Counted from the first letter of the stretch, positions 1 through 27,400 are shown. The stretch is 32,000 nt of DNA from Candidatus Omnitrophota bacterium (GCA_963662715.1 OY759724.1:1-32000), one strand, 5' to 3'. Notes: generated by a model from the letters alone, not told the origin. Numbers and translations: made by a program.

Positions 1-3000
1 CATTCATACTCACCCAATTAATCCCCATATCACTCATCACATTTATGTCCTGCCAGTTGATTCCTGTATCTGATAGAACATCCAAATCCTGCCAGTTGAT
101 CCCCGCATCACTCAGGATATCCAGATCCTGCCAGTTAATTCCCGCGTTCGTCATATCACTCATACTCACCCAGTTCATCCCCATATCACTCATCACATCT
201 ATATCCAGCCAGTTGATCCCCGCATCACTCAAATCATTCACACTCACCCAATTGATTCCCATATCACTCATCACATTCAAATCCTGCCAGTTGATCCCTG
301 TATCACTCAATACATCCAAATCCTGCCAGTTGATCCCTGCGTCACTCATCACATCTATGTCCAGCCAATTGATCCCCGCATCACTTAAATCATTCACACT
401 CACCCAATTAATCCCCATATCACTCATCACATTTATGTCCTGCCAATTAACCCCCGCATCACTCAACACATCAATATCCGACCAGTTGATTCCCGCATCT
501 GATAGGACATCCAAATCCGACCAATTGATCCCTGTATCACTTAACACATCCAAATCCTGCCAGTTGATCCCCGCGTCCGAAAGAACATCGATATCCACCC
601 AGTTGATCCCCGCATTCGTCATATCACTCATACTCACCCAGTTCATCCCCATATCACTCATCACATCGATATCCACCCAGTTGATCCCCGCGTCACTTAA
701 ATCATTCACACTCACCCAATTAATCCCCGCGTCACTCATCACATTTATGTCCTGCCAGTTGATTCCCGTATCTGAGAGTACATCCAAGTCCACCCAGTTG
801 ATCCCCGCATCACTCATCACATCGATGTCCAGCCAGTTTATCCCCGCGTCACTTAAATCATTCACACTCACCCAATTGATACCCATATCACTCATCACAT
901 CGATATCCAGCCAGTTGATCCCTGTATCACTTAACACATTCAAATCCTGCCAGTTGATCCCCGCATCGCTCAGCACATCCAGGTCCAGCCAGTTGATTCC
1001 TGCGTCCGAAAGAACATCGATGTCCTGCCAGTTGATCCCCGCATCACTCAGCACATCTATATCCAGCCAGTTTATCCCCGCGTCACTCATATCATTCACA
1101 CTCACCCAATTAATTCCCATATCACTCATCACATTTATGTCCTGCCAGTTGATTCCTGTATCTGAGAGTACATCCAAATCCCGCCAATTAATCCCCGCAT
1201 CACTTAACACATCCAAATCCGACCAGTTGATCCCTGTATCACTTAACACATCCAAATCCTGCCAGTTGATCCCCGCGTCCGAAAGAACATCGATGTCCAG
1301 CCAGTTGATCCCCGCATTCGTCATATCACTCATACTCACCCAGTTCATCCCCATATCACTCATCACATCAATGTCCTGCCAGTTTATCCCCGCATCACTT
1401 AAATCATTCACACTCAACCAATTAATCCCCATATCACTCATCACATTCAAATCCTGCCAGTTGATCCCTGTATCACTCAATACATCAATGTCCAACCAGT
1501 TGATCCCCGTATCACTCATCACATCGATATCCAGCCAGTTGATTCCCGCATCACTTAAATCATTCACACTCACCCAATTGATACCCATATCACTCATCAC
1601 ATTTATATCCTGCCAATTGATTCCCGTATCTGAGAGCACATCCAAGTCCAGCCAGTTGATCCCTGTATCACTTAATACATCAATGTCCAGCCAGTTTATC
1701 CCCGTATCTGAAAGAACATCCAAATCCACCCAGTTGATCCCCGCATCACTCATCACATCAATGTCCAGCCAGTTTATCCCCGCGTCACTCATATCATTCA
1801 CACTCACCCAATTAATCCCCATATCACTCATCACATTTATGTCCTGCCAGTTGATCCCCGTATCGCTTAATACATCAATATCCGACCAGTTGATCCCTAT
1901 ATCACTCATCACATTTATGTCCTGCCAGTTGATTCCTGTATCTGATAGAACATCCAAATCCTGCCAGTTGATCCCCGCATCACTCATCACATCTATATCC
2001 AGCCAGTTTATCCCCGCGTCACTTAAATCATTCACACTCACCCAATTAATCCCCATATCACTCATCACATTTATGTCCTGCCAGTTGATCCCTGTGTCAC
2101 TTAATACATCCAGGTCCAGCCAGTTGATCCCCGCGTCACTTAATACATCCAGGTCCAGCCAGTTTATTCCCGCATTCGTCATATCACTCATACTCACCCA
2201 GTTCATCCCCGTATCACTCATCACATCAATATCCAGCCAGTTGATCCCCGCATCACTTAAATCATTCACACTCACCCAATTGATACCCATATCACTCATC
2301 ACATTCAAATCCTGCCAGTTGATCCCTATATCACTCAATACATCAATGTCCAGCCAATTAATTCCCGCATCACTCATCACATTTATATCCTGCCAGTTGA
2401 TCCCCGTATCTGAAAGGACATCCAGGTCCAGCCAATTAATTCCCGTATCACTCATCACATCTATATCCAGCCAGTTGATCCCCGCATCACTTAAATCATT
2501 CACACTCACCCAATTGATCCCCATATCACTCATCACATTTATATCCTGCCAGTTGATCCCTGTATCACTCAATACATCCAAATCCTGCCAGTTGATCCCC
2601 GCATCACTTAATACATCAATATCTGACCAGTTGATCCTCGCATCACTTAATACATCAATATCTGCCCAGTTGATCCCCGCATCACTCATCACATTGATAT
2701 CCAGCCAGTTGATCCCCGCGTCACTCATATCATTCACACTCACCCAGTTAATCCCCATATCGCTCATCACATTCAAATCCTGCCAGTTGATCCCTGTATC
2801 GCTCAATACATCCAAATCCTGCCAGTTGATCCCCGCGTCACTTAACACATCCAGATCCTGCCAGTTAATTCCCGCGTTCGTCATATCACTCATACTCACC
2901 CAGTTTATCCCCATATCACTCATCACATCTATATCCAGCCAGTTGATCCCCGCGTCACTCATATCATTCACACTCACCCAATTGATTCCCATATCACTCA

Positions 3001-3432
3001 TCACATTTATGTCCTGCCAGTTGATCCCCGTATCCGAGAGCACATCCATATCCTGCCAGTTAATTCCCGTATCACTCATCACATCTATATCCAACCAGTT
3101 GATCCCCGCATTCGTCATATCACTCATACTCACCCAGTTCATCCCCGCATCACTCATCACATCGATGTCCAGCCAGTTTATCCCCGCGTCACTTAAATCA
3201 TTCACACTCACCCAATTAATCCCCATATCACTCATCACATTCAAATCCTGCCAGTTGATCCCCGTATCACTTAATACATCAATATCTGCCCAGTTGATCC
3301 CCGTATCACTCATCACATCTATATCCAGCCAGTTGATCCCCGCGTTCGTCATATCACTCATACTCACCCAGTTCATCCCCGTATCACTCATCACATCTAT
3401 GTCCAGCCAGTTGATCCCCGCGTCACTTAAAT
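1..3432 (-). repeat. HOR copy H1 (A-type, 88 units). The phase of the copy boundary is arbitrary.
   Basis: Fully parsed into 88 x 39 nt units. Variants include a at 20, cct at 2636-2638, gct at 2762-2764, and t at 2906. Confidence 0.9.
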
Positions 3433-6400
3433 CATTCATACTCACCCAATTGATCCCCATATCACTCATCACATTTATGTCCTGCCAGTTGATTCCTGTA
3501 TCTGATAGAACATCCAAATCCTGCCAGTTGATCCCCGCATCACTCAGGATATCCAGATCCTGCCAGTTAATTCCCGCGTTCGTCATATCACTCATACTCA
3601 CCCAGTTCATCCCCATATCACTCATCACATCTATATCCAGCCAGTTGATCCCCGCATCACTCAAATCATTCACACTCACCCAATTGATTCCCATATCACT
3701 CATCACATTCAAATCCTGCCAGTTGATCCCTGTATCACTCAATACATCCAAATCCTGCCAGTTGATCCCTGCGTCACTCATCACATCTATGTCCAGCCAA
3801 TTGATCCCCGCATCACTTAAATCATTCACACTCACCCAATTAATCCCCATATCACTCATCACATTTATGTCCTGCCAATTAACCCCCGCATCACTCAACA
3901 CATCAATATCCGACCAGTTGATTCCCGCATCTGATAGGACATCCAAATCCGACCAATTGATCCCTGTATCACTTAACACATCCAAATCCTGCCAGTTGAT
4001 CCCCGCGTCCGAAAGAACATCGATATCCACCCAGTTGATCCCCGCATTCGTCATATCACTCATACTCACCCAGTTCATCCCCATATCACTCATCACATCG
4101 ATATCCAGCCAGTTGATCCCCGCGTCACTTAAATCATTCACACTCACCCAATTAATCCCCGCGTCACTCATCACATTTATGTCCTGCCAGTTGATTCCCG
4201 TATCTGAGAGTACATCCAAGTCCACCCAGTTGATCCCCGCATCACTCATCACATCGATGTCCAGCCAGTTTATCCCCGCGTCACTTAAATCATTCACACT
4301 CACCCAATTGATACCCATATCACTCATCACATCGATATCCAGCCAGTTGATCCCTGTATCACTTAACACATTCAAATCCTGCCAGTTGATCCCCGCATCG
4401 CTCAGCACATCCAGGTCCAGCCAGTTGATTCCTGCGTCCGAAAGAACATCGATGTCCTGCCAGTTGATCCCCGCATCACTCAGCACATCTATATCCAGCC
4501 AGTTTATCCCCGCGTCACTCATATCATTCACACTCACCCAATTAATTCCCATATCACTCATCACATTTATGTCCTGCCAGTTGATTCCTGTATCTGAGAG
4601 TACATCCAAATCCCGCCAATTAATCCCCGCATCACTTAACACATCCAAATCCGACCAGTTGATCCCTGTATCACTTAACACATCCAAATCCTGCCAGTTG
4701 ATCCCCGCGTCCGAAAGAACATCGATGTCCAGCCAGTTGATCCCCGCATTCGTCATATCACTCATACTCACCCAGTTCATCCCCATATCACTCATCACAT
4801 CAATGTCCTGCCAGTTTATCCCCGCATCACTTAAATCATTCACACTCAACCAATTAATCCCCATATCACTCATCACATTCAAATCCTGCCAGTTGATCCC
4901 TGTATCACTCAATACATCAATGTCCAACCAGTTGATCCCCGTATCACTCATCACATCGATATCCAGCCAGTTGATTCCCGCATCACTTAAATCATTCACA
5001 CTCACCCAATTGATACCCATATCACTCATCACATTTATATCCTGCCAATTGATTCCCGTATCTGAGAGCACATCCAAGTCCAGCCAGTTGATCCCTGTAT
5101 CACTTAATACATCAATGTCCAGCCAGTTTATCCCCGTATCTGAAAGAACATCCAAATCCACCCAGTTGATCCCCGCATCACTCATCACATCAATGTCCAG
5201 CCAGTTTATCCCCGCGTCACTCATATCATTCACACTCACCCAATTAATCCCCATATCACTCATCACATTTATGTCCTGCCAGTTGATCCCCGTATCGCTT
5301 AATACATCAATATCCGACCAGTTGATCCCTATATCACTCATCACATTTATGTCCTGCCAGTTGATTCCTGTATCTGATAGAACATCCAAATCCTGCCAGT
5401 TGATCCCCGCATCACTCATCACATCTATATCCAGCCAGTTTATCCCCGCGTCACTTAAATCATTCACACTCACCCAATTAATCCCCATATCACTCATCAC
5501 ATTTATGTCCTGCCAGTTGATCCCTGTGTCACTTAATACATCCAGGTCCAGCCAGTTGATCCCCGCGTCACTTAATACATCCAGGTCCAGCCAGTTTATT
5601 CCCGCATTCGTCATATCACTCATACTCACCCAGTTCATCCCCGTATCACTCATCACATCAATATCCAGCCAGTTGATCCCCGCATCACTTAAATCATTCA
5701 CACTCACCCAATTGATACCCATATCACTCATCACATTCAAATCCTGCCAGTTGATCCCTATATCACTCAATACATCAATGTCCAGCCAATTAATTCCCGC
5801 ATCACTCATCACATTTATATCCTGCCAGTTGATCCCCGTATCTGAAAGGACATCCAGGTCCAGCCAATTAATTCCCGTATCACTCATCACATCTATATCC
5901 AGCCAGTTGATCCCCGCATCACTTAAATCATTCACACTCACCCAATTGATCCCCATATCACTCATCACATTTATATCCTGCCAGTTGATCCCTGTATCAC
6001 TCAATACATCCAAATCCTGCCAGTTGATCCCCGCATCACTTAATACATCAATATCTGACCAGTTGATCCCCGCATCACTTAATACATCAATATCTGCCCA
6101 GTTGATCCCCGCATCACTCATCACATTGATATCCAGCCAGTTGATCCCCGCGTCACTCATATCATTCACACTCACCCAGTTAATCCCCATATCACTCATC
6201 ACATTCAAATCCTGCCAGTTGATCCCTGTATCGCTCAATACATCCAAATCCTGCCAGTTGATCCCCGCGTCACTTAACACATCCAGATCCTGCCAGTTAA
6301 TTCCCGCGTTCGTCATATCACTCATACTCACCCAGTTCATCCCCATATCACTCATCACATCTATATCCAGCCAGTTGATCCCAGCGTCACTCATATCATT

Positions 6401-9400
6401 CACACTCACCCAATTGATTCCCATATCACTCATCACATTTATGTCCTGCCAGTTGATCCCCGTATCCGAGAGCACATCTATATCCAGCCAGTTAATTCCC
6501 GTATCACTCATCACATCTATATCCAACCAGTTGATCCCCGCATTCGTCATATCACTCATACTCACCCAGTTCATCCCCGCATCACTCATCACATCGATGT
6601 CCAGCCAGTTTATCCCCGCGTCACTTAAATCATTCACACTCACCCAATTAATCCCCATATCACTCATCACATTCAAATCCTGCCAGTTGATCCCCGTATC
6701 ACTTAATACATCAATATCTGCCCAGTTGATCCCCGTATCACTCATCACATCTATATCCAGCCAGTTGATCCCCGCGTTCGTCATATCACTCATACTCACC
6801 CAGTTCATCCCCGTATCACTCATCACATCTATGTCCAGCCAGTTGATCCCCGCGTCACTTAAATCATTCATACTTACCCAATTGATCCCCATATCACTCA
6901 TCACATTTATGTCCTGCCAGTTGATTCCTGTATCTGATAGAACATCCAAATCCTGCCAGTTGATCCCCGCATCACTCAGGATATCCAGATCCTGCCAGTT
7001 AATTCCCGCGTTCGTCATATCACTCATACTCACCCAGTTCATCCCCATATCACTCATCACATCTATATCCAGCCAGTTGATCCCCGCATCACTCAAATCA
7101 TTCACACTCACCCAATTGATTCCCATATCACTCATCACATTCAAATCCTGCCAGTTGATCCCTGTATCACTCAATACATCCAAATCCTGCCAGTTGATCC
7201 CTGCGTCACTCATCACATCTATGTCCAGCCAATTGATCCCCGCATCACTTAAATCATTCACACTCACCCAATTAATCCCCATATCACTCATCACATTTAT
7301 GTCCTGCCAATTAACCCCCGCATCACTCAACACATCAATATCCGACCAGTTGATTCCCGCATCTGATAGGACATCCAAATCCGACCAATTGATCCCTGTA
7401 TCACTTAACACATCCAAATCCTGCCAGTTGATCCCCGCGTCCGAAAGAACATCGATATCCACCCAGTTGATCCCCGCATTCGTCATATCACTCATACTCA
7501 CCCAGTTCATCCCCATATCACTCATCACATCGATATCCACCCAGTTGATCCCCGCGTCACTTAAATCATTCACACTCACCCAATTAATCCCCGCGTCACT
7601 CATCACATTTATGTCCTGCCAGTTGATTCCCGTATCTGAGAGTACATCCAAGTCCACCCAGTTGATCCCCGCATCACTCATCACATCGATGTCCAGCCAG
7701 TTTATCCCCGCGTCACTTAAATCATTCACACTCACCCAATTGATACCCATATCACTCATCACATCGATATCCAGCCAGTTGATCCCTGTATCACTTAACA
7801 CATTCAAATCCTGCCAGTTGATCCCCGCATCGCTCAGCACATCCAGGTCCAGCCAGTTGATTCCTGCGTCCGAAAGAACATCGATGTCCTGCCAGTTGAT
7901 CCCCGCATCACTCAGCACATCTATATCCAGCCAGTTTATCCCCGCGTCACTCATATCATTCACACTCACCCAATTAATTCCCATATCACTCATCACATTT
8001 ATGTCCTGCCAGTTGATTCCTGTATCTGAGAGTACATCCAAATCCCGCCAATTAATCCCCGCATCACTTAACACATCCAAATCCGACCAGTTGATCCCTG
8101 TATCACTTAACACATCCAAATCCTGCCAGTTGATCCCCGCGTCCGAAAGAACATCGATGTCCAGCCAGTTGATCCCCGCATTCGTCATATCACTCATACT
8201 CACCCAGTTCATCCCCATATCACTCATCACATCAATGTCCTGCCAGTTTATCCCCGCATCACTTAAATCATTCACACTCAACCAATTAATCCCCATATCA
8301 CTCATCACATTCAAATCCTGCCAGTTGATCCCTGTATCACTCAATACATCAATGTCCAACCAGTTGATCCCCGTATCACTCATCACATCGATATCCAGCC
8401 AGTTGATTCCCGCATCACTTAAATCATTCACACTCACCCAATTGATACCCATATCACTCATCACATTTATATCCTGCCAATTGATTCCCGTATCTGAGAG
8501 CACATCCAAGTCCAGCCAGTTGATCCCTGTATCACTTAATACATCAATGTCCAGCCAGTTTATCCCCGTATCTGAAAGAACATCCAAATCCACCCAGTTG
8601 ATCCCCGCATCACTCATCACATCAATGTCCAGCCAGTTTATCCCCGCGTCACTCATATCATTCACACTCACCCAATTAATCCCCATATCACTCATCACAT
8701 TTATGTCCTGCCAGTTGATCCCCGTATCGCTTAATACATCAATATCCGACCAGTTGATCCCTATATCACTCATCACATTTATGTCCTGCCAGTTGATTCC
8801 TGTATCTGATAGAACATCCAAATCCTGCCAGTTGATCCCCGCATCACTCATCACATCTATATCCAGCCAGTTTATCCCCGCGTCACTTAAATCATTCACA
8901 CTCACCCAATTAATCCCCATATCACTCATCACATTTATGTCCTGCCAGTTGATCCCTGTGTCACTTAATACATCCAGGTCCAGCCAGTTGATCCCCGCGT
9001 CACTTAATACATCCAGGTCCAGCCAGTTTATTCCCGCATTCGTCATATCACTCATACTCACCCAGTTCATCCCCGTATCACTCATCACATCAATATCCAG
9101 CCAGTTGATCCCCGCATCACTTAAATCATTCACACTCACCCAATTGATACCCATATCACTCATCACATTCAAATCCTGCCAGTTGATCCCTATATCACTC
9201 AATACATCAATGTCCAGCCAATTAATTCCCGCATCACTCATCACATTTATATCCTGCCAGTTGATCCCCGTATCTGAAAGGACATCCAGGTCCAGCCAAT
9301 TAATTCCCGTATCACTCATCACATCTATATCCAGCCAGTTGATCCCCGCATCACTTAAATCATTCACACTCACCCAATTGATCCCCATATCACTCATCAC

Positions 9401-12400
9401 ATTTATATCCTGCCAGTTGATCCCTGTATCACTCAATACATCCAAATCCTGCCAGTTGATCCCCGCATCACTTAATACATCAATATCTGACCAGTTGATC
9501 CTCGCATCACTTAATACATCAATATCTGCCCAGTTGATCCCCGCATCACTCATCACATTGATATCCAGCCAGTTGATCCCCGCGTCACTCATATCATTCA
9601 CACTCACCCAGTTAATCCCCATATCGCTCATCACATTCAAATCCTGCCAGTTGATCCCTGTATCGCTCAATACATCCAAATCCTGCCAGTTGATCCCCGC
9701 GTCACTTAACACATCCAGATCCTGCCAGTTAATTCCCGCGTTCGTCATATCACTCATACTCACCCAGTTTATCCCCATATCACTCATCACATCTATATCC
9801 AGCCAGTTGATCCCCGCGTCACTCATATCATTCACACTCACCCAATTGATTCCCATATCACTCATCACATTTATGTCCTGCCAGTTGATCCCCGTATCCG
9901 AGAGCACATCCATATCCTGCCAGTTAATTCCCGTATCACTCATCACATCTATATCCAACCAGTTGATCCCCGCATTCGTCATATCACTCATACTCACCCA
10001 GTTCATCCCCGCATCACTCATCACATCGATGTCCAGCCAGTTTATCCCCGCGTCACTTAAATCATTCACACTCACCCAATTAATCCCCATATCACTCATC
10101 ACATTCAAATCCTGCCAGTTGATCCCCGTATCACTTAATACATCAATATCTGCCCAGTTGATCCCCGTATCACTCATCACATCTATATCCAGCCAGTTGA
10201 TCCCCGCGTTCGTCATATCACTCATACTCACCCAGTTCATCCCCGTATCACTCATCACATCTATGTCCAGCCAGTTGATCCCCGCGTCACTTAAATCATT
10301 CATACTCACCCAATTGATCCCCATATCACTCATCACATTTATGTCCTGCCAGTTGATTCCTGTATCTGATAGAACATCCAAATCCTGCCAGTTGATCCCC
10401 GCATCACTCAGGATATCCAGATCCTGCCAGTTAATTCCCGCGTTCGTCATATCACTCATACTCACCCAGTTCATCCCCATATCACTCATCACATCTATAT
10501 CCAGCCAGTTGATCCCCGCATCACTCAAATCATTCACACTCACCCAATTGATTCCCATATCACTCATCACATTCAAATCCTGCCAGTTGATCCCTGTATC
10601 ACTCAATACATCCAAATCCTGCCAGTTGATCCCTGCGTCACTCATCACATCTATGTCCAGCCAATTGATCCCCGCATCACTTAAATCATTCACACTCACC
10701 CAATTAATCCCCATATCACTCATCACATTTATGTCCTGCCAATTAACCCCCGCATCACTCAACACATCAATATCCGACCAGTTGATTCCCGCATCTGATA
10801 GGACATCCAAATCCGACCAATTGATCCCTGTATCACTTAACACATCCAAATCCTGCCAGTTGATCCCCGCGTCCGAAAGAACATCGATATCCACCCAGTT
10901 GATCCCCGCATTCGTCATATCACTCATACTCACCCAGTTCATCCCCATATCACTCATCACATCGATATCCACCCAGTTGATCCCCGCGTCACTTAAATCA
11001 TTCACACTCACCCAATTAATCCCCGCGTCACTCATCACATTTATGTCCTGCCAGTTGATTCCCGTATCTGAGAGTACATCCAAGTCCACCCAGTTGATCC
11101 CCGCATCACTCATCACATCGATGTCCAGCCAGTTTATCCCCGCGTCACTTAAATCATTCACACTCACCCAATTGATACCCATATCACTCATCACATCGAT
11201 ATCCAGCCAGTTGATCCCTGTATCACTTAACACATTCAAATCCTGCCAGTTGATCCCCGCATCGCTCAGCACATCCAGGTCCAGCCAGTTGATTCCTGCG
11301 TCCGAAAGAACATCGATGTCCTGCCAGTTGATCCCCGCATCACTCAGCACATCTATATCCAGCCAGTTTATCCCCGCGTCACTCATATCATTCACACTCA
11401 CCCAATTAATTCCCATATCACTCATCACATTTATGTCCTGCCAGTTGATTCCTGTATCTGAGAGTACATCCAAATCCCGCCAATTAATCCCCGCATCACT
11501 TAACACATCCAAATCCGACCAGTTGATCCCTGTATCACTTAACACATCCAAATCCTGCCAGTTGATCCCCGCGTCCGAAAGAACATCGATGTCCAGCCAG
11601 TTGATCCCCGCATTCGTCATATCACTCATACTCACCCAGTTCATCCCCATATCACTCATCACATCAATGTCCTGCCAGTTTATCCCCGCATCACTTAAAT
11701 CATTCACACTCAACCAATTAATCCCCATATCACTCATCACATTCAAATCCTGCCAGTTGATCCCTGTATCACTCAATACATCAATGTCCAACCAGTTGAT
11801 CCCCGTATCACTCATCACATCGATATCCAGCCAGTTGATTCCCGCATCACTTAAATCATTCACACTCACCCAATTGATACCCATATCACTCATCACATTT
11901 ATATCCTGCCAATTGATTCCCGTATCTGAGAGCACATCCAAGTCCAGCCAGTTGATCCCTGTATCACTTAATACATCAATGTCCAGCCAGTTTATCCCCG
12001 TATCTGAAAGAACATCCAAATCCACCCAGTTGATCCCCGCATCACTCATCACATCAATGTCCAGCCAGTTTATCCCCGCGTCACTCATATCATTCACACT
12101 CACCCAATTAATCCCCATATCACTCATCACATTTATGTCCTGCCAGTTGATCCCCGTATCGCTTAATACATCAATATCCGACCAGTTGATCCCTATATCA
12201 CTCATCACATTTATGTCCTGCCAGTTGATTCCTGTATCTGATAGAACATCCAAATCCTGCCAGTTGATCCCCGCATCACTCATCACATCTATATCCAGCC
12301 AGTTTATCCCCGCGTCACTTAAATCATTCACACTCACCCAATTAATCCCCATATCACTCATCACATTTATGTCCTGCCAGTTGATCCCTGTGTCACTTAA

Positions 12401-15400
12401 TACATCCAGGTCCAGCCAGTTGATCCCCGCGTCACTTAATACATCCAGGTCCAGCCAGTTTATTCCCGCATTCGTCATATCACTCATACTCACCCAGTTC
12501 ATCCCCGTATCACTCATCACATCAATATCCAGCCAGTTGATCCCCGCATCACTTAAATCATTCACACTCACCCAATTGATACCCATATCACTCATCACAT
12601 TCAAATCCTGCCAGTTGATCCCTATATCACTCAATACATCAATGTCCAGCCAATTAATTCCCGCATCACTCATCACATTTATATCCTGCCAGTTGATCCC
12701 CGTATCTGAAAGGACATCCAGGTCCAGCCAATTAATTCCCGTATCACTCATCACATCTATATCCAGCCAGTTGATCCCCGCATCACTTAAATCATTCACA
12801 CTCACCCAATTGATCCCCATATCACTCATCACATTTATATCCTGCCAGTTGATCCCTGTATCACTCAATACATCCAAATCCTGCCAGTTGATCCCCGCAT
12901 CACTTAATACATCAATATCTGACCAGTTGATCCTCGCATCACTTAATACATCAATATCTGCCCAGTTGATCCCCGCATCACTCATCACATTGATATCCAG
13001 CCAGTTGATCCCCGCGTCACTCATATCATTCACACTCACCCAGTTAATCCCCATATCGCTCATCACATTCAAATCCTGCCAGTTGATCCCTGTATCGCTC
13101 AATACATCCAAATCCTGCCAGTTGATCCCCGCGTCACTTAACACATCCAGATCCTGCCAGTTAATTCCCGCGTTCGTCATATCACTCATACTCACCCAGT
13201 TCATCCCCATATCACTCATCACATCTATATCCAGCCAGTTGATCCCAGCGTCACTCATATCATTCACACTCACCCAATTGATTCCCATATCACTCATCAC
13301 ATTTATGTCCTGCCAGTTGATCCCCGTATCCGAGAGCACATCCATATCCTGCCAGTTAATTCCCGTATCACTCATCACATCTATATCCAACCAGTTGATC
13401 CCCGCATTCGTCATATCACTCATACTCACCCAGTTCATCCCCGCATCACTCATCACATCGATGTCCAGCCAGTTTATCCCCGCGTCACTTAAATCATTCA
13501 CACTCACCCAATTAATCCCCATATCACTCATCACATTCAAATCCTGCCAGTTGATCCCCGTATCACTTAATACATCAATATCTGCCCAGTTGATCCCCGT
13601 ATCACTCATCACATCTATATCCAGCCAGTTGATCCCCGCGTTCGTCATATCACTCATACTCACCCAGTTCATCCCCGTATCACTCATCACATCTATGTCC
13701 AGCCAGTTGATCCCCGCGTCACTTAAATCATTCATACTCACCCAATTGATCCCCATATCACTCATCACATTTATGTCCTGCCAGTTGATTCCTGTATCTG
13801 ATAGAACATCCAAATCCTGCCAGTTGATCCCCGCATCACTCAGGATATCCAGATCCTGCCAGTTAATTCCCGCGTTCGTCATATCACTCATACTCACCCA
13901 GTTCATCCCCATATCACTCATCACATCTATATCCAGCCAGTTGATCCCCGCATCACTCAAATCATTCACACTCACCCAATTGATTCCCATATCACTCATC
14001 ACATTCAAATCCTGCCAGTTGATCCCTGTATCACTCAATACATCCAAATCCTGCCAGTTGATCCCTGCGTCACTCATCACATCTATGTCCAGCCAATTGA
14101 TCCCCGCATCACTTAAATCATTCACACTCACCCAATTAATCCCCATATCACTCATCACATTTATGTCCTGCCAATTAACCCCCGCATCACTCAACACATC
14201 AATATCCGACCAGTTGATTCCCGCATCTGATAGGACATCCAAATCCGACCAATTGATCCCTGTATCACTTAACACATCCAAATCCTGCCAGTTGATCCCC
14301 GCGTCCGAAAGAACATCGATATCCACCCAGTTGATCCCCGCATTCGTCATATCACTCATACTCACCCAGTTCATCCCCATATCACTCATCACATCGATAT
14401 CCACCCAGTTGATCCCCGCGTCACTTAAATCATTCACACTCACCCAATTAATCCCCGCGTCACTCATCACATTTATGTCCTGCCAGTTGATTCCCGTATC
14501 TGAGAGTACATCCAAGTCCACCCAGTTGATCCCCGCATCACTCATCACATCGATGTCCAGCCAGTTTATCCCCGCGTCACTTAAATCATTCACACTCACC
14601 CAATTGATACCCATATCACTCATCACATCGATATCCAGCCAGTTGATCCCTGTATCACTTAACACATTCAAATCCTGCCAGTTGATCCCCGCATCGCTCA
14701 GCACATCCAGGTCCAGCCAGTTGATTCCTGCGTCCGAAAGAACATCGATGTCCTGCCAGTTGATCCCCGCATCACTCAGCACATCTATATCCAGCCAGTT
14801 TATCCCCGCGTCACTCATATCATTCACACTCACCCAATTAATTCCCATATCACTCATCACATTTATGTCCTGCCAGTTGATTCCTGTATCTGAGAGTACA
14901 TCCAAATCCCGCCAATTAATCCCCGCATCACTTAACACATCCAAATCCGACCAGTTGATCCCTGTATCACTTAACACATCCAAATCCTGCCAGTTGATCC
15001 CCGCGTCCGAAAGAACATCGATGTCCAGCCAGTTGATCCCCGCATTCGTCATATCACTCATACTCACCCAGTTCATCCCCATATCACTCATCACATCAAT
15101 GTCCTGCCAGTTTATCCCCGCATCACTTAAATCATTCACACTCAACCAATTAATCCCCATATCACTCATCACATTCAAATCCTGCCAGTTGATCCCTGTA
15201 TCACTCAATACATCAATGTCCAACCAGTTGATCCCCGTATCACTCATCACATCGATATCCAGCCAGTTGATTCCCGCATCACTTAAATCATTCACACTCA
15301 CCCAATTGATACCCATATCACTCATCACATTTATATCCTGCCAATTGATTCCCGTATCTGAGAGCACATCCAAGTCCAGCCAGTTGATCCCTGTATCACT

Positions 15401-18400
15401 TAATACATCAATGTCCAGCCAGTTTATCCCCGTATCTGAAAGAACATCCAAATCCACCCAGTTGATCCCCGCATCACTCATCACATCAATGTCCAGCCAG
15501 TTTATCCCCGCGTCACTCATATCATTCACACTCACCCAATTAATCCCCATATCACTCATCACATTTATGTCCTGCCAGTTGATCCCCGTATCGCTTAATA
15601 CATCAATATCCGACCAGTTGATCCCTATATCACTCATCACATTTATGTCCTGCCAGTTGATTCCTGTATCTGATAGAACATCCAAATCCTGCCAGTTGAT
15701 CCCCGCATCACTCATCACATCTATATCCAGCCAGTTTATCCCCGCGTCACTTAAATCATTCACACTCACCCAATTAATCCCCATATCACTCATCACATTT
15801 ATGTCCTGCCAGTTGATCCCTGTGTCACTTAATACATCCAGGTCCAGCCAGTTGATCCCCGCGTCACTTAATACATCCAGGTCCAGCCAGTTTATTCCCG
15901 CATTCGTCATATCACTCATACTCACCCAGTTCATCCCCGTATCACTCATCACATCAATATCCAGCCAGTTGATCCCCGCATCACTTAAATCATTCACACT
16001 CACCCAATTGATACCCATATCACTCATCACATTCAAATCCTGCCAGTTGATCCCTATATCACTCAATACATCAATGTCCAGCCAATTAATTCCCGCATCA
16101 CTCATCACATTTATATCCTGCCAGTTGATCCCCGTATCTGAAAGGACATCCAGGTCCAGCCAATTAATTCCCGTATCACTCATCACATCTATATCCAGCC
16201 AGTTGATCCCCGCATCACTTAAATCATTCACACTCACCCAATTGATCCCCATATCACTCATCACATTTATATCCTGCCAGTTGATCCCTGTATCACTCAA
16301 TACATCCAAATCCTGCCAGTTGATCCCCGCATCACTTAATACATCAATATCTGACCAGTTGATCCCCGCATCACTTAATACATCAATATCTGCCCAGTTG
16401 ATCCCCGCATCACTCATCACATTGATATCCAGCCAGTTGATCCCCGCGTCACTCATATCATTCACACTCACCCAGTTAATCCCCATATCACTCATCACAT
16501 TCAAATCCTGCCAGTTGATCCCTGTATCGCTCAATACATCCAAATCCTGCCAGTTGATCCCCGCGTCACTTAACACATCCAGATCCTGCCAGTTAATTCC
16601 CGCGTTCGTCATATCACTCATACTCACCCAGTTCATCCCCATATCACTCATCACATCTATATCCAGCCAGTTGATCCCAGCGTCACTCATATCATTCACA
16701 CTCACCCAATTGATTCCCATATCACTCATCACATTTATGTCCTGCCAGTTGATCCCCGTATCCGAGAGCACATCCATATCCTGCCAGTTAATTCCCGTAT
16801 CACTCATCACATCTATATCCAGCCAGTTGATCCCCGCATTCGTCATATCACTCATACTCACCCAGTTCATCCCCGCATCACTCATCACATCGATGTCCAG
16901 CCAGTTTATCCCCGCGTCACTTAAATCATTCACACTCACCCAATTAATCCCCATATCACTCATCACATTCAAATCCTGCCAGTTGATCCCCGTATCACTT
17001 AATACATCAATATCTGCCCAGTTGATCCCCGTATCACTCATCACATCTATATCCAGCCAGTTGATCCCCGCGTTCGTCATATCACTCATACTCACCCAGT
17101 TCATCCCCGTATCACTCATCACATCTATGTCCAGCCAGTTGATCCCCGCGTCACTTAAATCATTCATACTTACCCAATTGATCCCCATATCACTCATCAC
17201 ATTTATGTCCTGCCAGTTGATTCCTGTATCTGATAGAACATCCAAATCCTGCCAGTTGATCCCCGCATCACTCAGGATATCCAGATCCTGCCAGTTAATT
17301 CCCGCGTTCGTCATATCACTCATACTCACCCAGTTCATCCCCATATCACTCATCACATCTATATCCAGCCAGTTGATCCCCGCATCACTCAAATCATTCA
17401 CACTCACCCAATTGATTCCCATATCACTCATCACATTCAAATCCTGCCAGTTGATCCCTGTATCACTCAATACATCCAAATCCTGCCAGTTGATCCCTGC
17501 GTCACTCATCACATCTATGTCCAGCCAATTGATCCCCGCATCACTTAAATCATTCACACTCACCCAATTAATCCCCATATCACTCATCACATTTATGTCC
17601 TGCCAATTAACCCCCGCATCACTCAACACATCAATATCCGACCAGTTGATTCCCGCATCTGATAGGACATCCAAATCCGACCAATTGATCCCTGTATCAC
17701 TTAACACATCCAAATCCTGCCAGTTGATCCCCGCGTCCGAAAGAACATCGATATCCACCCAGTTGATCCCCGCATTCGTCATATCACTCATACTCACCCA
17801 GTTCATCCCCATATCACTCATCACATCGATATCCAGCCAGTTGATCCCCGCGTCACTTAAATCATTCACACTCACCCAATTAATCCCCGCGTCACTCATC
17901 ACATTTATGTCCTGCCAGTTGATTCCCGTATCTGAGAGTACATCCAAGTCCACCCAGTTGATCCCCGCATCACTCATCACATCGATATCCAGCCAGTTTA
18001 TCCCCGCGTCACTTAAATCATTCACACTCACCCAATTGATACCCATATCACTCATCACATCGATATCCAGCCAGTTGATCCCTGTATCACTTAACACATT
18101 CAAATCCTGCCAGTTGATCCCCGCATCGCTCAGCACATCCAGGTCCAGCCAGTTGATTCCCGTATCTGATAGAACATCCAAATCCTGCCAGTTGATCCCC
18201 GCATCACTCAGCACATCTATATCCAGCCAGTTTATCCCCGCGTCACTCATATCATTCACACTCACCCAATTAATTCCCATATCACTCATCACATTTATGT
18301 CCTGCCAGTTGATTCCTGTATCTGAGAGTACATCCAAATCCCGCCAATTAATCCCCGCATCACTTAACACATCCAAATCCGACCAGTTGATCCCTGTATC

Positions 18401-21400
18401 ACTTAACACATCCAAATCCTGCCAGTTGATCCCCGCGTCCGAAAGAACATCGATGTCCAGCCAGTTGATCCCCGCATTCGTCATATCACTCATACTCACC
18501 CAGTTCATCCCCATATCACTCATCACATCAATGTCCTGCCAGTTTATCCCCGCATCACTTAAATCATTCACACTCAACCAATTAATCCCCATATCACTCA
18601 TCACATTCAAATCCTGCCAGTTGATCCCTGTATCACTCAATACATCAATGTCCAACCAGTTGATCCCCGTATCACTCATCACATCGATATCCAGCCAGTT
18701 GATTCCCGCATCACTTAAATCATTCACACTCACCCAATTGATACCCATATCACTCATCACATTTATATCCTGCCAATTGATTCCCGTATCTGAGAGCACA
18801 TCCAAGTCCAGCCAGTTGATCCCTGTATCACTTAATACATCAATGTCCAGCCAGTTTATCCCCGTATCTGAAAGAACATCCAAATCCACCCAGTTGATCC
18901 CCGCGTCACTCATCACATCAATGTCCAGCCAGTTGATCCCCGCATCGCTCAAATCATTCACGCTCACCCAATTAATCCCCGCGTCACTCATCACATTCAA
19001 ATCCTGCCAGTTGATCCCCGTATCACTTAACACATCCATATCCGACCAGTTTATCCCCGCATCACTCAGGATATTCAAGTCCAACCAGTTAATTCCCGTA
19101 TCTGATAGCACATCCAAATCCTGCCAGTTGATCCCCGCATCACTCATCACATCTATGTCCAACCAGTTGATCCCCGCGTCACTCATATCATTCACACTCA
19201 CCCAATTGATCCCCATATCACTCATCACATTTATGTCCTGCCAGTTGATCCCCGTATCACTTAACACATCCATATCCGACCAGTTTATCCCCGCATCACT
19301 CAGGATATCCAAGTCCAGCCAGTTGATTCCCGCGTTCGTCATATCACTCATACTCACCCAGTTCATCCCCGTATCACTCATCACATCAATATCCAGCCAG
19401 TTGATCCCCGCGTCACTTAAATCATTCACACTCACCCAATTGATACCCATATCACTCATCACATTCAAATCCTGCCAGTTTATCCCTATATCACTCAATA
19501 CATCAATGTCCAGCCAATTAATTCCCGCATCACTCATCACATTTATATCCTGCCAGTTGATCCCCGTATCACTCATCACATCCAGATCGAGCCAATTAAT
19601 TCCCGTATCACTCATCACATCTATATCCAGCCAGTTGATCCCCGCATCACTTAAATCATTCACACTCACCCAATTGATCCCCATATCACTCATCACATTT
19701 ATATCCTGCCAGTTGATCCCTGTATCACTCAATACATCCAAATCCTGCCAGTTGATCCCCGTATCCGATAGCACATCTAAATCCTGCCAGTTGATCCCCG
19801 CATCACTTAATACATCTATGTCCAGCCAGTTGATCCCCGCATCACTCATCACATCGATGTCCAGCCAGTTTATCCCCGCGTCACTCATATCATTCACACT
19901 CACCCAGTTAATCCCCATATCGCTCATCACATTCAAATCCTGCCAGTTGATCCCTGTATCGCTCAATACATCCAAATCCTGCCAGTTAATCCCCGTATCC
20001 GAGAGCACATCCAGATCCAGCCAGTTGATTCCCGCATTCGTCATATCACTCATACTCACCCAGTTCATCCCCATATCACTCATCACATCTATGTCCAGCC
20101 AGTTGATCCCCGCGTCACTCATATCATTCACACTCACCCAGTTAATCCCCATGTCACTCATCACATTTATATCCTGCCAGTTGATCCCCGTATCCGAGAG
20201 CACATCCATATCCTGCCAGTTGATCCCCGCATCGCTCAGGATATCCAAGTCCAGCCAGTTGATCCCCGCGTTCGTCATATCACTCATACTCACCCAGTTC
20301 ATCCCGATATCACTCATCACATCGATATCCAGCCAGTTGATCCCCGCGTCACTCATATCATTCACACTCACCCAGTTAATCCCCATGTCACTCATCACAT
20401 TTATATCCTGCCAGTTGATCCCCGTATCCGAGAGCACATCTAAATCCTGCCAGTTGATCCCCGCATCGCTCAGGATATCCAAATCCAGCCAATTGATCCC
20501 CGCATTCGTCATATCACTCATACTCACCCAGTTCATCCCCGCATCACTCATCACATCGATATCCTGCCAGTTAATCCCCGCATCACTTAAATCATTCACG
20601 CTCACCCAGTTAATACCCATGTCACTCATAACATTTATGTCCTGCCAGTTGATCCCCGTATCCGATAGCACATCTAAATCCTGCCAGTTGATCCCCGCAT
20701 CACTCAGGATATCCAAGTCCAGCCAGTTAATTCCCGCGTTCGTCATATCACTCATACTTACCCAGTTCATCCCCGTATCACTCATCACATCGATATCCAG
20801 CCAGTTAATCCCCGCGTCACTTAAATCATTCACACTCACCCAATTGATCCCCATATCACTCATCACATTCAAATCCTGCCAGTTGATCCCCGTATCCGAG
20901 AGCACATCCAGATCCTGCCAGTTGATCCCCGCATCGCTCATCACATCGATGTCCAGCCAGTTGATCCCCGCGTCACTTAAATCATTCACACTCACCCAAT
21001 TGATCCCTATATCACTCATCACATTTATGTCCTGCCAATTAACCCCCGCATCACTTAACACATCAATATCCGACCAGTTGATCCCCGCATCTGATAGGAC
21101 ATCCAAATCCGACCAATTGATCCCTGTATCTGAAATAACATCAATGTCCGACCAGTTGATCCCCGCGTCCGAAAGAACATCGATATCCAGCCAGTTGATC
21201 CCCGCGTTCGTCATATCACTCATACTCACCCAGTTCATCCCCATATCACTCATCACATCGATATCCACCCAGTTGATCCCCGCATCACTTAAATCATTCA
21301 CACTCACCCAATTGATCCCCGCGTCACTCATCACATTTATGTCCTGCCAGTTGATCCCTGTATCACTCAATACATCCATATCCTGCCAGTTAATCCCCGC

Positions 21401-24400
21401 ATCACTCATCACATCGATATCCAGCCAGTTGATCCCCGCATCACTTAAATCATTCACACTCACCCAGTTAATCCCCATGTCACTCATAACATTTATGTCC
21501 TGCCAGTTGATCCCTGTATCACTTAACACATCCAGGTCCACCCAATTGATCCCCGCATCGCTCAGCACATCCAAATCCAGCCAGTTGATTCCCGTATCTG
21601 ATAGAACATCCAAATCCTGCCAGTTGATCCCCGCATCACTCATCACATCGATGTCCAACCAATTGATCCCCGCGTCACTCATATCATTCACACTCACCCA
21701 ATTGATCCCCATGTCACTCATCACATTTATGTCCTGCCAGTTGATTCCTGTATCTGAAAGCACATCCAAATCCCGCCAATTAATCCCCGCATCACTTAAC
21801 ACATTCAAATCCGACCAGTTGATTCCTGTATCACTTAACACATCCAAATCCTGCCAGTTGATCCCCGCGTCCGAAAGAACATCGATGTCCAGCCAGTTGA
21901 TCCCCGCATTCGTCATATCACTCATACTCACCCAGTTCATCCCCATATCACTCATCACATCAATGTCCTGCCAGTTGATCCCCGCATCACTTAAATCATT
22001 CACACTCACCCAATTAATCCCCATATCACTCATCACATTCAAATCCTGCCAATTTATCCCCGTATCTGAGAGTACATCCAAGTCCACCCAGTTAATTCCC
22101 GCATCTGAAAGGACATCAATGTCCAGCCAGTTGATTCCCGCATCACTTAAATCATTCACACTCACCCAATTGATCCCCATATCACTCATCACATTCAAAT
22201 CCTGCCAATTTATCCCCGTATCTGAGAGTACATCCAAGTCCAGCCAGTTGATCCCTGTATCACTTAATACATCAATGTCCAGCCAGTTGATCCCCGTATC
22301 ACTTAACACATCGATGTCCAGCCAGTTTATCCCCGCGTCACTCATCACATCAATGTCCAGCCAGTTGATCCCCGCATCGCTCAAATCATTCACGCTCACC
22401 CAATTAATTCCCATATCACTCATCACATTTATGTCCTGCCAGTTAATTCCTGTATCTGATAGAACATCCAAATCCTGCCAGTTAATCCCCGCATCACTCA
22501 GGATATTCAAGTCCAGCCAGTTAATTCCCGTATCTGAGAGCACATCCAAATCCTGCCAGTTGATCCCCGCGTCACTCATCACATCTATGTCCAACCAGTT
22601 GATCCCCGCGTCACTCATATCATTCACATTCACCCAATTGATCCCCATATCACTCATCACATTCAAATCCTGCCAGTTGATCCCCGTATCACTTAACACA
22701 TCCATATCCGACCAGTTTATCCCCGCATCACTCAGGATATCCAAGTCCAGCCAGTTGATTCCCGCGTTCGTCATATCACTCATACTCACCCAGTTCATCC
22801 CCGTATCACTCATCACATCAATATCCAGCCAGTTGATCCCCGCGTCACTTAAATCATTCACACTCACCCAATTGATCCCCATATCACTCATCACATTCAA
22901 ATCCTGCCAATTGATCCCCGTATCGCTTAATACATCCACATCCTGCCAATTTATCCCCGCATCACTCAGGATATCCAAGTCCAGCCAGTTGATCCCCGTA
23001 TCACTCAACACATCCAGATCCAGCCAGTTGATCCCCGCGTCACTCATCACATCTATATCCAGCCAATTGATCCCCGCGTCACTTAAATCATTCACACTCA
23101 CCCAATTGATCCCCATGTCACTCATCACATTTATGTCCTGCCAATTAACCCCCGTATCACTTAACACATTCAAATCCTGCCAGTTGATCCCTGCATCACT
23201 TAATACATCAATATCTGCCCAGTTGATCCCCGCATCACTTAATACATCTATGTCCAGCCAGTTGATCCCCGCATCACTCATCACATCGATGTCCAGCCAG
23301 TTTATCCCCGCGTCACTCATATCATTCACACTCACCCAGTTAATCCCCATGTCACTCATCACATTCAAATCCTGCCAGTTAATCCCCGTATCCGATAGCA
23401 CATCCAAATCTAACCAATTAATCCCCGTATCACTTAAGACATCAATATCCAGCCAGTTGATTCCCGCATTCGTCATATCACTCATACTCACCCAGTTCAT
23501 CCCCATATCACTCATCACATCTATGTCCAGCCAGTTGATCCCCGCGTCACTCATATCATTCACACTCACCCAGTTAATCCCCATGTCACTCATCACATTT
23601 ATATCCTGCCAGTTGATCCCCGTATCCGAGAGCACATCCATATCCTGCCAGTTGATCCCCGCATCGCTCAGGATATCCAAGTCCAGCCAGTTGATCCCCG
23701 CGTTCGTCATATCACTCATACTCACCCAGTTCATCCCGATATCACTCATCACATCGATATCCAGCCAGTTGATCCCCGCGTCACTTAAATCACTCACACT
23801 CACCCAATTAATCCCCATATCACTCATCACATTTATGTCCTGCCAGTTGATCCCCGTATCCGAGAGCACATCCATATCCTGCCAGTTGATCCCCGCATCA
23901 CTCAGGATATCCAAATCCAGCCAATTGATCCCCGCATTCGTCATATCACTCATACTCACCCAGTTCATCCCCGCATCACTCATCACATCTATATCCAGCC
24001 AGTTAATCCCCGCATCACTTAAATCATTCACGCTCACCCAGTTAATACCCATGTCACTCATAACATTTATGTCCTGCCAGTTGATCCCCGTATCCGATAG
24101 CACATCTAAATCCTGCCAGTTGATCCCCGCATCACTCAGGATATCCAAGTCCAGCCAGTTAATTCCCGCGTTCGTCATATCACTCATACTCACCCAGTTC
24201 ATCCCCGTATCACTCATCACATCGATATCCAGCCAGTTGATCCCCGCGTCACTTAAATCATTCACACTCACCCAATTGATCCCCATATCACTCATCACAT
24301 TCAAATCCTGCCAGTTGATCCCCGTATCCGAGAGCACATCCAGATCCTGCCAGTTGATCCCCGCATCGCTCATCACATCGATGTCCAGCCAGTTGATCCC

Positions 24401-27400
24401 CGCGTCACTTAAATCATTCACACTCACCCAATTGATCCCTATATCACTCATCACATTTATGTCCTGCCAATTAACCCCCGCATCACTTAACACATCAATA
24501 TCCGACCAGTTGATCCCCGTATCTGATAGGACATCCAAATCCGACCAATTGATCCCTGTATCTGAAATAACATCAATGTCCGACCAGTTGATCCCCGCGT
24601 CCGAAAGAACATCGATATCCAGCCAGTTGATCCCCGCGTTCGTCATATCACTCATACTCACCCAGTTCATCCCCATATCACTCATCACATCGATATCCAC
24701 CCAGTTGATCCCCGCATCACTTAAATCATTCACACTCACCCAATTGATCCCCATATCACTCATCACATTTATGTCCTGCCAGTTGATCCCTGTATCACTC
24801 AATACATCCATATCCTGCCAGTTAATCCCCGCATCACTCATCACATCGATATCCAGCCAGTTGATCCCCGCATCACTTAAATCATTCACACTCACCCAGT
24901 TAATCCCCATGTCACTCATAACATTTATGTCCTGCCAGTTGATCCCTGTATCACTTAACACATCCAGGTCCACCCAATTGATCCCCGCATCGCTCAGCAC
25001 ATCCAAATCCAGCCAGTTGATTCCCGTATCTGATAGAACATCCAAATCCTGCCAGTTGATCCCCGCATCACTCATCACATCGATGTCCAACCAATTGATC
25101 CCCGCGTCACTCATATCATTCACACTCACCCAATTGATCCCCATATCACTCATCACATTTATGTCCTGCCAGTTGATTCCTGTATCTGAAAGCACATCCA
25201 AATCCCGCCAATTAATCCCCGCATCACTTAACACATTCAAATCCGACCAGTTGATTCCTGTATCACTTAACACATCCAAATCCTGCCAGTTGATCCCCGC
25301 GTCCGAAAGAACATCGATGTCCAGCCAGTTGATCCCCGCATTCGTCATATCACTCATACTCACCCAGTTCATCCCCATATCACTCATCACATCAATGTCC
25401 TGCCAGTTGATCCCCGCATCACTTAAATCATTCACACTCACCCAATTAATCCCCATATCACTCATCACATTCAAATCCTGCCAATTTATCCCCGTATCTG
25501 AGAGTACATCCAAGTCCACCCAGTTAATTCCCGCATCTGAAAGGACATCAATGTCCAGCCAGTTGATTCCCGCATCACTTAAATCATTCACACTCACCCA
25601 ATTGATCCCCATATCACTCATCACATTCAAATCCTGCCAATTTATCCCCGTATCTGAGAGTACATCCAAGTCCACCCAGTTAATTCCCGCATCTGAAAGG
25701 ACATCAATGTCCAGCCAGTTGATCCCCGTATCACTTAACACATCGATGTCCAGCCAGTTTATCCCCGCGTCACTCATCACATCAATGTCCAGCCAGTTGA
25801 TCCCCGCATCGCTCAAATCATTCACGCTCACCCAATTAATTCCCATATCACTCATCACATTTATGTCCTGCCAGTTAATTCCTGTATCTGATAGAACATC
25901 CAAATCCTGCCAGTTAATCCCCGCATCACTCAGGATATTCAAGTCCAGCCAGTTAATTCCCGTATCTGAGAGCACATCCAAATCCTGCCAGTTGATCCCC
26001 GCGTCACTCATCACATCTATGTCCAACCAGTTGATCCCCGCGTCACTCATATCATTCACATTCACCCAATTGATCCCCATATCACTCATCACATTCAAAT
26101 CCTGCCAGTTGATCCCCGTATCACTTAACACATCCATATCCGACCAGTTTATCCCCGCATCACTCAGGATATCCAAGTCCAGCCAGTTGATTCCCGCGTT
26201 CGTCATATCACTCATACTCACCCAGTTCATCCCCGTATCACTCATCACATCAATATCCAGCCAGTTGATCCCCGCGTCACTTAAATCATTCACACTCACC
26301 CAATTGATCCCCATATCACTCATCACATTCAAATCCTGCCAATTGATCCCCGTATCGCTTAATACATCCACATCCTGCCAATTTATCCCCGCATCACTCA
26401 GGATATCCAAGTCCAGCCAGTTGATCCCCGTATCACTCAACACATCCAGATCCAGCCAGTTGATCCCCGCGTCACTCATCACATCTATATCCAGCCAATT
26501 GATCCCCGCGTCACTTAAATCATTCACACTCACCCAATTGATCCCCATGTCACTCATCACATTTATGTCCTGCCAATTAACCCCCGTATCACTTAACACA
26601 TTCAAATCCTGCCAGTTGATCCCTGCATCACTTAATACATCAATATCTGCCCAGTTGATCCCCGCATCACTTAATACATCTATGTCCAGCCAGTTGATCC
26701 CCGCATCACTCATCACATCGATGTCCAGCCAGTTTATCCCCGCGTCACTCATATCATTCACACTCACCCAGTTAATCCCCATGTCACTCATCACATTCAA
26801 ATCCTGCCAGTTAATCCCCGTATCCGATAGCACATCCAAATCTAACCAATTAATCCCCGTATCACTTAAGACATCAATATCCAGCCAGTTGATTCCCGCA
26901 TTCGTCATATCACTCATACTCACCCAGTTCATCCCCATATCACTCATCACATCTATGTCCAGCCAGTTGATCCCCGCGTCACTCATATCATTCACACTCA
27001 CCCAGTTAATCCCCATGTCACTCATCACATTTATATCCTGCCAGTTGATCCCCGTATCCGAGAGCACATCCATATCCTGCCAGTTGATCCCCGCATCGCT
27101 CAGGATATCCAAGTCCAGCCAGTTGATCCCCGCGTTCGTCATATCACTCATACTCACCCAGTTCATCCCGATATCACTCATCACATCGATATCCAGCCAG
27201 TTGATCCCCGCGTCACTCATATCATTCACACTCACCCAGTTAATCCCCATGTCACTCATCACATTTATGTCCTGCCAGTTGATCCCCGTATCCGAGAGCA
27301 CATCTAAATCCTGCCAGTTGATCCCCGCATCACTCAGGATATCCAAATCCAGCCAATTGATCCCCGCATTCGTCATATCACTCATACTCACCCAGTTCAT

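Follow-up and report, generated by a model that had tools for sequence, protein, structure and literature searches.

The window analysed here is a stretch of 32,000 bp from a Candidatus Omnitrophota bacterium (GCA_963662715.1, OY759724.1:1-32000), and it lies entirely within a giant gene on the minus strand, which is under purifying selection. Minus frame 1 contains no stop in 10,666 codons, so that the encoded protein has at least 10,666 aa and the window represents an internal part of the gene. The frame encodes 821 consecutive 13-residue repeats with the consensus NWxDxDVxSDxGI (hereafter the NW repeat), in which Asn and Trp are each present in 821 of the 821 units and Gly in 817. At the DNA level, a 3,432-bp unit is repeated in register 5.5 times over positions 1-18,904, with 99.8-99.9% identity between the copies; a patchwork zone and older copies of the same unit complete the window. 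It was considered quite likely that this young block originated by a recent in-frame segmental amplification, through unequal homologous recombination and gene conversion, in a giant gene of the Omnitrophota type. For the description, full 3,432-bp rows were stacked from position 1 and named H1-H9, H10 being a partial row of 1,112 bp. The young copies (H1-H5) are referred to as subfamily A and the older ones (H7-H10) as subfamily B, and an offset is a position within a copy. The features of the window are the following:

Giant open reading frame (ORF), interior part: 1..32000, minus strand; open at both window ends, codons ending at plus-strand positions 31999-3k.
H1: 1..3432, minus strand; young-family (A) copy, sole carrier of A at position 20; shares T2638 with H3 and H4, and T2906 with H3.
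H2: 3433..6864, minus strand; young copy with changes at window positions 4108, 6479 and 6486 that are private among H1-H5; 4108 corresponds to offset 676, and the same change is found in H6.
H3: 6865..10296, minus strand; young copy with 2 differences from H1; T at offset 11 (window 6875), also present in H6.
H4: 10297..13728, minus strand; young copy, like H1 and H3 at offsets 2638 and 2762 and like H2 and H5 at 2906 and 2951.
H5: 13729..17160, minus strand; young copy; its G at window 16822 is also found in H6-H9.
H6a: 17161..18904, minus strand; initial 1,744 bp of copy six, young-type; differs from H5 at 11 positions and from H7-H9 at 143-155.
22-bp tract in H6: 18161..18182, minus strand; 8 differences from H1-H5, flanked by young-family sequence.
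H6b junction zone: 18905..20592, minus strand; patchwork of alternating A-type and B-type tracts, with at least 12 switches within 1.7 kb.
H7-H9 and partial H10: 20593..32000, minus strand; older subfamily B, in the same phase as the young block and about 10% diverged from H1-H5.

In a scan of all lags over the whole window, 3,432 bp was found to be the dominant long period, with a self-identity of 98.0% at this lag. At lags 39 and 234 the self-identity was 70% and 82%, respectively, no other multiple of 39 exceeded 84%, and the pattern at lag 3,432 is far beyond chance. All copies stack at exactly 3,432 bp, no indel was detected across the 32 kb, and the period persists to position 32,000. 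The array is organized in three nested levels. The first one is the 39-bp (13-aa) unit, of which 56 distinct sequences are present. At the second level, units are grouped in blocks of 4-8, opened by an NWVSVND[LM]SDAGI unit and usually closed by an xDxNV unit; blocks of six units are the commonest, which explains the signal at 234 bp. The third level is the higher-order unit of 3,432 bp, that is, 88 units of 39 bp or 1,144 aa. Tandem Repeats Finder called the whole window as one array and gave only the periods 234 and 390. Among the short periods, a super-period of six units (78 aa) is the strongest both in the window and in the related loci L001, L003, L008, L015 and L023, and it may be a true structural repeat.

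The coding nature of the array was evidenced by the distribution of its variation. Codon-position entropy was 0.66/0.38/0.89 for positions 1, 2 and 3, the second position being the least and the third the most variable. The differences between A and B copies were distributed 96/32/227 over the three codon positions, and the ratio of nonsynonymous to synonymous divergence (dN/dS) between both subfamilies was about 0.10 in the minus frame. An earlier note, made on this DNA from its sequence, had described the array as a higher-order repeat (HOR), a vocabulary that implies satellite DNA. This description is adequate as regards the diverged monomers and the near-identical multimers, but it overlooked that they form the interior of a coding ORF under purifying selection. 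The stronger version, a non-coding satellite DNA with a higher-order repeat in the style of eukaryotic centromeres, would account for the hierarchical identity (70% between monomers at lag 39, 99.8-99.9% among H1-H5). It is refuted, and was left with practically no weight, since the 10,666 codons are free of stops, the monomer measures exactly 13 codons with invariant Asn and Trp, dN/dS is 0.10, and the protein has bacterial homologues with signal peptides and flanking domains.

Plus frame 2, on the antisense strand, is likewise free of stops over 10,666 codons and has its third codon position in common with the minus frame. It was rejected as the coding frame on the basis of its dN/dS (0.32 vs 0.10) and because homologues match the minus-strand translation only. 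Most likely, no second gene is involved, and the antisense frame is open as a side effect of the restricted codon set. Such restriction is also visible in the protein, as the 10,666 residues comprise only 13 amino-acid types. There are 2,024 Asp (19%) and 12 Arg, and Lys, Glu, His, Pro, Phe, Tyr and Cys are not used at all. With these counts and no Lys, Glu or His, the net charge is near -2,000.

The five complete young copies (positions 1-17,160) differ from each other at 2-8 positions. Full comparison gave exactly ten variable sites, at offsets 11, 20, 676, 2638, 2762, 2906, 2951, 3047, 3054 and 3094. Only single-nucleotide variants were found within these 17 kb, with no leftover patch of the old type, and each copy has its own combination of alleles. 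The proportion of the window in copies at least 99.8% identical was 59%. The earlier note had reported about 5.5 near-identical 3.4-kb copies over positions 1-18889 with about ten differing sites, and both figures hold, the sixth copy following the fifth up to 18,904. Its list of sites, drawn up by eye, was almost exact: all allele partitions and the private changes at 6479 and 6486 were recovered, a site placed at 2637 is really 2638, and an A/G site at offset 20 had been overlooked, the remaining coordinates being right. At this last site H1 differs from H2-H6, and the sequence surrounding the A of H1 is otherwise purely of A type. The change at 16822, described as private to H5, is so within H1-H5, but the same G in H6-H9 makes it probably ancestral.

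The recency of the amplification, which had also been claimed, was confirmed at synonymous sites. Synonymous divergence was 0.0016-0.005 among the A copies, compared with a synonymous divergence of about 0.47 between subfamilies A and B. As the near-identity of the A copies extends to synonymous sites, it reflects recent common ancestry and not selection at the protein level.

A block of this type could also be a product of assembly or polishing, in which the HOR would be real but the number of copies wrong, the variants smeared, or variants of different strains threaded into a single array. For assemblers, no case is harder than 3.4-kb repeats of at least 99.8% identity extending over 19 kb. 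Of 27 related loci, 26 have the NW array interrupted by a contig or locus end, mostly the former, and the source was not found in the public collections scanned. On the other hand, the five copies carry distinct allele combinations and are not exact loop copies, there is neither an indel nor a frame break in 32 kb, and the transition from the young block through a mosaic copy to the older subfamily is orderly. The variants are also enriched in synonymous changes relative to random errors: five of the ten among H1-H5 are synonymous, where about 20% would be expected for random changes, although this enrichment is weak (P about 0.02-0.07). An artefact was rated as unlikely, though it is the most serious of the competing explanations, and the warning of the earlier note about mis-assembly is still valid.

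The C-to-T change at offset 2638 (window 2638, 9502 and 12934, in H1, H3 and H4) replaces the Gly of the repeat by Arg. In this column Gly is present in 817 of 820 units, and the three Arg are those of H1, H3 and H4. The replacement is probably slightly harmful and was spread by copying. Taken together, the distinct allele sets, the synonymous excess and the shared Gly-to-Arg change make the H1-H5 variants look real.

It had also been proposed that the partitions of alleles among the young copies conflict with each other, as a signature of ongoing exchange. For H1-H5 taken alone, this was not supported. The partitions {H1,H3,H4|H2,H5} and {H1,H3|H2,H4,H5} are nested, and the four informative sites of H1-H5 all fit the tree ((H1,H3),H4,(H2,H5)). 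The four-gamete test, which the note had suggested, gave no violation within H1-H5, and the minimum number of recombination events (Hudson-Kaplan Rm) was 0. Conflicts appear once the copies are rooted on subfamily B or on H6: offsets 2638/2762 vs 2951, 2951 vs 3094, offset 20 vs several sites, and offset 11 vs 676 through H6. The proposed recombinant origin of H4, switching between 13058 and 13202, is therefore a possible, parsimonious reading only with subfamily B as the root; it relies on single sites, and one recurrent mutation is equally explanatory.

When the comparison was extended to H1-H9, Rm was 10, and a permutation test of the pairwise homoplasy index (PHI) type gave 0 of 500. The decisive evidence of exchange comes from outside H1-H5: besides this Rm, it consists of the H6b patchwork, the 22-bp tract in H6 and the clustered differences among H7-H9. 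Unequal crossing-over or conversion, which the earlier note had invoked, is accordingly active in the array, as also indicated by the donor sequence found for H8, but the partitions within H1-H5 are no proof of it.

The sixth copy is identical to H5 up to offset 1744 (window 18,904), save for offsets 11, 676 and 827 and the 22-bp patch, and is divergent beyond. At 18161..18182 it shares at least 50 bp of identity with H7-H9 at the same offset, and the patch is a short conversion tract in register. In H6b the runs of one type extend up to about 560 bp and contain 3-57 diagnostic sites each; isolated single-site switches are present too. The older copies show a larger and less even divergence. 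A and B copies differ at 335-357 of 3,432 positions, full pairs among H7-H9 at 27-106 sites, and H10 differs from these at 21-27 sites over 1,112 bp. The differences among H7-H9 are bunched in tight clusters. One of these, at about window 25663-25712 (offsets 1639-1688), contains 9 differences private to H8. An exact donor of 50 nt lies at offset 1483 of two copies, displaced by 156 bp or four units, and the cluster is an out-of-register micro-conversion.

These tracts are also relevant to a different origin of the young block, in which at least five old, diverged copies were overwritten by in-register conversion from one of them, the number of copies remaining unchanged. Conversion tracts are demonstrable in the array, and H6 resembles a partly converted copy. 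Against this, H1-H5 keep no residual patch of the old type over 17 kb and show single-nucleotide variants only. The tracts observed measure tens to hundreds of bp, and 17 kb free of patches would require numerous events or tracts of great length. Homogenisation was thus regarded as improbable, somewhat more so than an assembly artefact.

The segmental amplification favoured here would have proceeded by unequal crossing-over, in which higher-order copies of the two sister chromosomes pair in misalignment and undergo homologous recombination. Since 3,432 is a multiple of 3 and 39 (1,144 x 3 and 88 x 39), an exchange in register maintains both the frame and the repeat register, and every event would add or remove exactly 1,144 aa without breaking the frame. 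Short-tract gene conversion, in and out of register, would also be active and would have produced the patchwork of H6 and the clustered differences among H7-H9.

Several points weigh against this explanation. The number of copies and the assignment of variants to copies are those of a single assembly, the collections searched containing no second one of this organism, and amplification and a complete homogenisation of pre-existing copies are formally inseparable. Taken by themselves, the variants of H1-H5 are compatible with a tree and give no evidence of exchange among the youngest copies. In addition, this tree departs from the physical order of the copies, since H1 and H3 are closest and H2 lies between them; an amplification of one copy at a time is therefore insufficient, and a two-copy block duplication or added conversion is required. 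Both ends of the gene and its neighbours lie outside the window, the context being that of homologues at 73% identity or less. Finally, the fold of the repeat comes from AlphaFold models of low confidence, with values of the confidence score pLDDT of 36-58 for the window segment and the homologue P0004.

The protein was also compared with known families. The scan of one full higher-order unit against Pfam and NCBIfam gave no single stretch that passed; matches to Ntox33, MAGI_u1 and Dmc1 were discarded as spurious, since they had summed scores only. The PDB sequence search gave no match, and neither did the Rfam scan nor the tblastn search of phage genomes. The consensus NWxDxDVxSDxGI does not contain DxDxDG, and the calcium-binding families (EF-hand, dockerin, thrombospondin type 3) gave no Pfam match. 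The five Asp/Asn/Ser positions may still bind metal. AlphaFold modelled 26 window units with a pLDDT of 46, each one predicted as a helix of 8-9 residues and a loop of 4-5 residues, a confidence too low for the model to be relied upon.

The homologue search retrieved Candidatus Omnitrophota proteins, secreted and uncharacterised, with the same 13-residue NW repeat. Their motif has a strict spacing of 13 residues, the Asn-Trp pair and a G-[IV]-N-W-x-[DS] core, all of which are found in the window, and by sequence the window protein belongs to this Omnitrophota NW-repeat family. The protein homologue P0001 matched with E = 2.7e-179 and 57% identity. Scans of genome and metagenome contigs gave 27 related loci (L001-L027), the best being L001 and L017 at 72-73% identity, and nothing closer than 73% protein identity was found in them. 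An exact 31-mer that occurs once per copy had no match in the genome or metagenome contig collections. The named loci are all Omnitrophota metagenome-assembled genomes, some of them labelled Planctomycetales. The family is rare, with 347 matches at E <= 1e-3 among 1.84 billion representative proteins. Its members are acidic like the window protein, but they do make use of Lys, Arg and Glu.

The relatives consist of a signal peptide, N-terminal domains, the NW array and a C-terminal tail. The N-terminus contains either Ig-like beta domains or a LamG domain followed by sequence without Pfam match. The Ig-like domains of P0004 were confidently modelled and match filamin-, titin- and complement-type Ig domains; they were also the only part of P0004 matched by Foldseek. 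In P0004, a complete homologue, the repeat region had a pLDDT of 36-58 and showed, as in the window, one helix of 8-9 residues per unit. The tail, of 250-420 aa, ends in VVVKTWFE, and its profile matches coiled-coil structures, which suggests that folding of the repeat may rely on the formation of oligomers. When homologues of the tail were searched, short contig-end fragments only were returned. From these features, the protein probably forms a fibre, either secreted or on the cell surface, with oligomerisation through its C-terminal coiled coil, and the amplification would alter the length of the fibre in steps of 1,144 aa. Secretion, oligomerisation and the locus context are here extrapolated from homologues at 73% identity or less.

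Several relatives have open arrays of 300-427 units. The NW array was cut by a contig or locus end, mostly the former, in all related loci but L007, which indicates that these arrays routinely break short-read assemblies. The database proteins of the family, of 600-2,800 aa, are mostly fragments. The relatives show weaker long periods of their own, of 18, 25 and 28 units at 62-77% identity. When conservation of the 88-unit order was tested in them, no phase stood out, and by this comparison the 88-unit higher-order unit appears to be lineage-specific. Judging from these sequences, segmental amplification with lineage-specific periods looks like the general growth mode of the family.

The neighbouring genes could be examined in the relatives. 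Upstream, a secretin and a TPR protein are found in four of the loci that have upstream flank. Immediately downstream lies a signal-peptide protein of about 450 aa without family match, and further downstream an F1-type ATPase set (alpha/beta, epsilon, b/delta fusion, gamma, alpha/beta) followed by a GspE-type ATPase with MshEN and PilZ domains. The downstream genes are kept in 12-15 of the 15 relatives having downstream flank. The syntenic relative loci are:

L004:7997-15976, L012:9309-11468, L017:2627-5555, and 12-15 other loci.

Two variations of the repeat were observed among the family members. The short proteins P0001 (residues ~650-665), P0004, P0005, P0007 and P0008 present a conserved mid-array stutter, in which an extra NW follows the previous NW after six or seven residues, e.g. 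GVNWTEQVNWDNLAE. No such break was found in the 821 units of the window. The distant relatives P0012 and P0014 have a repeat variant of 25-26 residues (GINWTxIDELVLDGINWxxYxx...) with unrelated N- and C-terminal flanks, and the phage genome collection gave no match.

The amplification of intragenic repeats by unequal recombination is a textbook mechanism. The mechanism is thus ordinary and the expected growth mode for such genes, but neither this gene family nor its three-level coding repeat has so far been described. As a higher-order repeat with three levels that is both bacterial and protein-coding, the window is a clean example, and since the young block, the older one and the junction copy with its patchwork are found side by side, it is useful for the study of concerted evolution under the constraint of a reading frame. 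It also exposes a rare family of 13-residue repeats without Pfam or PDB relative, whose gene lies, in the relatives, in a conserved secretion-type locus. As the family is systematically cut in short-read genomes, database lengths probably understate its true size range. Expansions of this kind are missed by repeat finders limited to short periods, as occurred here with the 234 and 390 bp given by Tandem Repeats Finder. Large recent expansions do occur, counter to a recent general statement on decayed nucleotide tandems in Omnitrophota giant genes (Nielsen and Lui 2026).

A more speculative proposal, offered as doubtful but worth stating, is that the gene represents an undescribed class of Omnitrophota giant proteins. 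It would encode a polyanionic filament of more than 800 uninterrupted NW units, exported via the adjacent secretin/type II secretion-like machinery. Recombination of the HOR would adjust the length of the filament in steps of 1,144 aa, and the resulting length polymorphism within populations might be relevant to host attachment by these episymbiotic nanobacteria.

Near-identical tandem repeats are also a feature of giant bacterial adhesins, such as MpIBP of Marinomonas primoryensis, SiiE of Salmonella, LapA of Pseudomonas and Ebh/SasG of Staphylococcus. Their in-frame repeats are kept near-identical by recombination, and the number of copies sets the length of the surface fibre. The likeness lies in the in-frame repeats of a very large secreted protein. 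However, the adhesins have repeats of about 100 aa that fold as Ig-like domains and form arrays of one level, whereas the window has a unit of 13 aa, three nested levels and an amplified segment of 1,144 aa. As to features of RTX/Bap-type adhesins (Ig-like domains, RTX nonapeptides), the repeat gave no Pfam match and no PDB match.

In alpha-satellite DNA, monomers are about 70% and higher-order copies more than 99% identical, and adjacent subfamily blocks are joined by hybrid copies; unequal crossing-over and conversion are the accepted mechanism of its homogenisation. Unlike alpha-satellite, the array of the window is bacterial and coding, its monomer measures 39 bp instead of about 171 bp, and its frame and register are under purifying selection. 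The ice-nucleation proteins of the InaZ family are surface proteins made of a very short repeat with a nested periodicity of 8, 16 and 48 residues. They resemble the window protein in being almost wholly composed of a short repeat with nested longer periods. In contrast, the motif of the window is unrelated, with no sequence match, and its array is far longer and strongly acidic; the secondary structure is beta in InaZ and, from the low-confidence models, predicted as helix-loop in the window.

A further comparison is with the giant proteins of Omnitrophota, for which Archaeovorin and Dockerin types have been described (West-Roberts et al. 2023, bioRxiv 10.1101/2023.11.21.568195), as well as a 'tandem-repeat scaffold' class (Nielsen and Lui 2026, bioRxiv 10.64898/2026.06.07.730766). 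The 13-residue NW repeat is described in neither of these works. The phylum is the same, judged by the homologues of the window protein, and so is the very long frame, of at least 10,666 aa here. The secretin/GspE/PilZ context found in relatives of the window gene is likewise comparable to the type II secretion-like loci and pilZ reported beside Omnitrophota giant genes (West-Roberts et al. 2023). Archaeovorins have HEAT, TPR and SecA-DEAD domains and many transmembrane helices, and the Dockerin type has dockerin and TSP3 repeats. Neither set was found in the 10,666 aa of the window, the Pfam scan of one full higher-order unit giving no HEAT, TPR, SecA, dockerin, TSP3 or other domain. The length criterion of both types is at least 30,000 aa, and the window shows at least 10,666 aa, open at both ends. 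With regard to the scaffold class, it was reported that strict nucleotide tandems never make up 10% or more of a long coding sequence and that the tandems 'have dissolved' (Nielsen and Lui 2026). The present gene differs in this respect, as the copies at least 99.8% identical account for 59% of the window.

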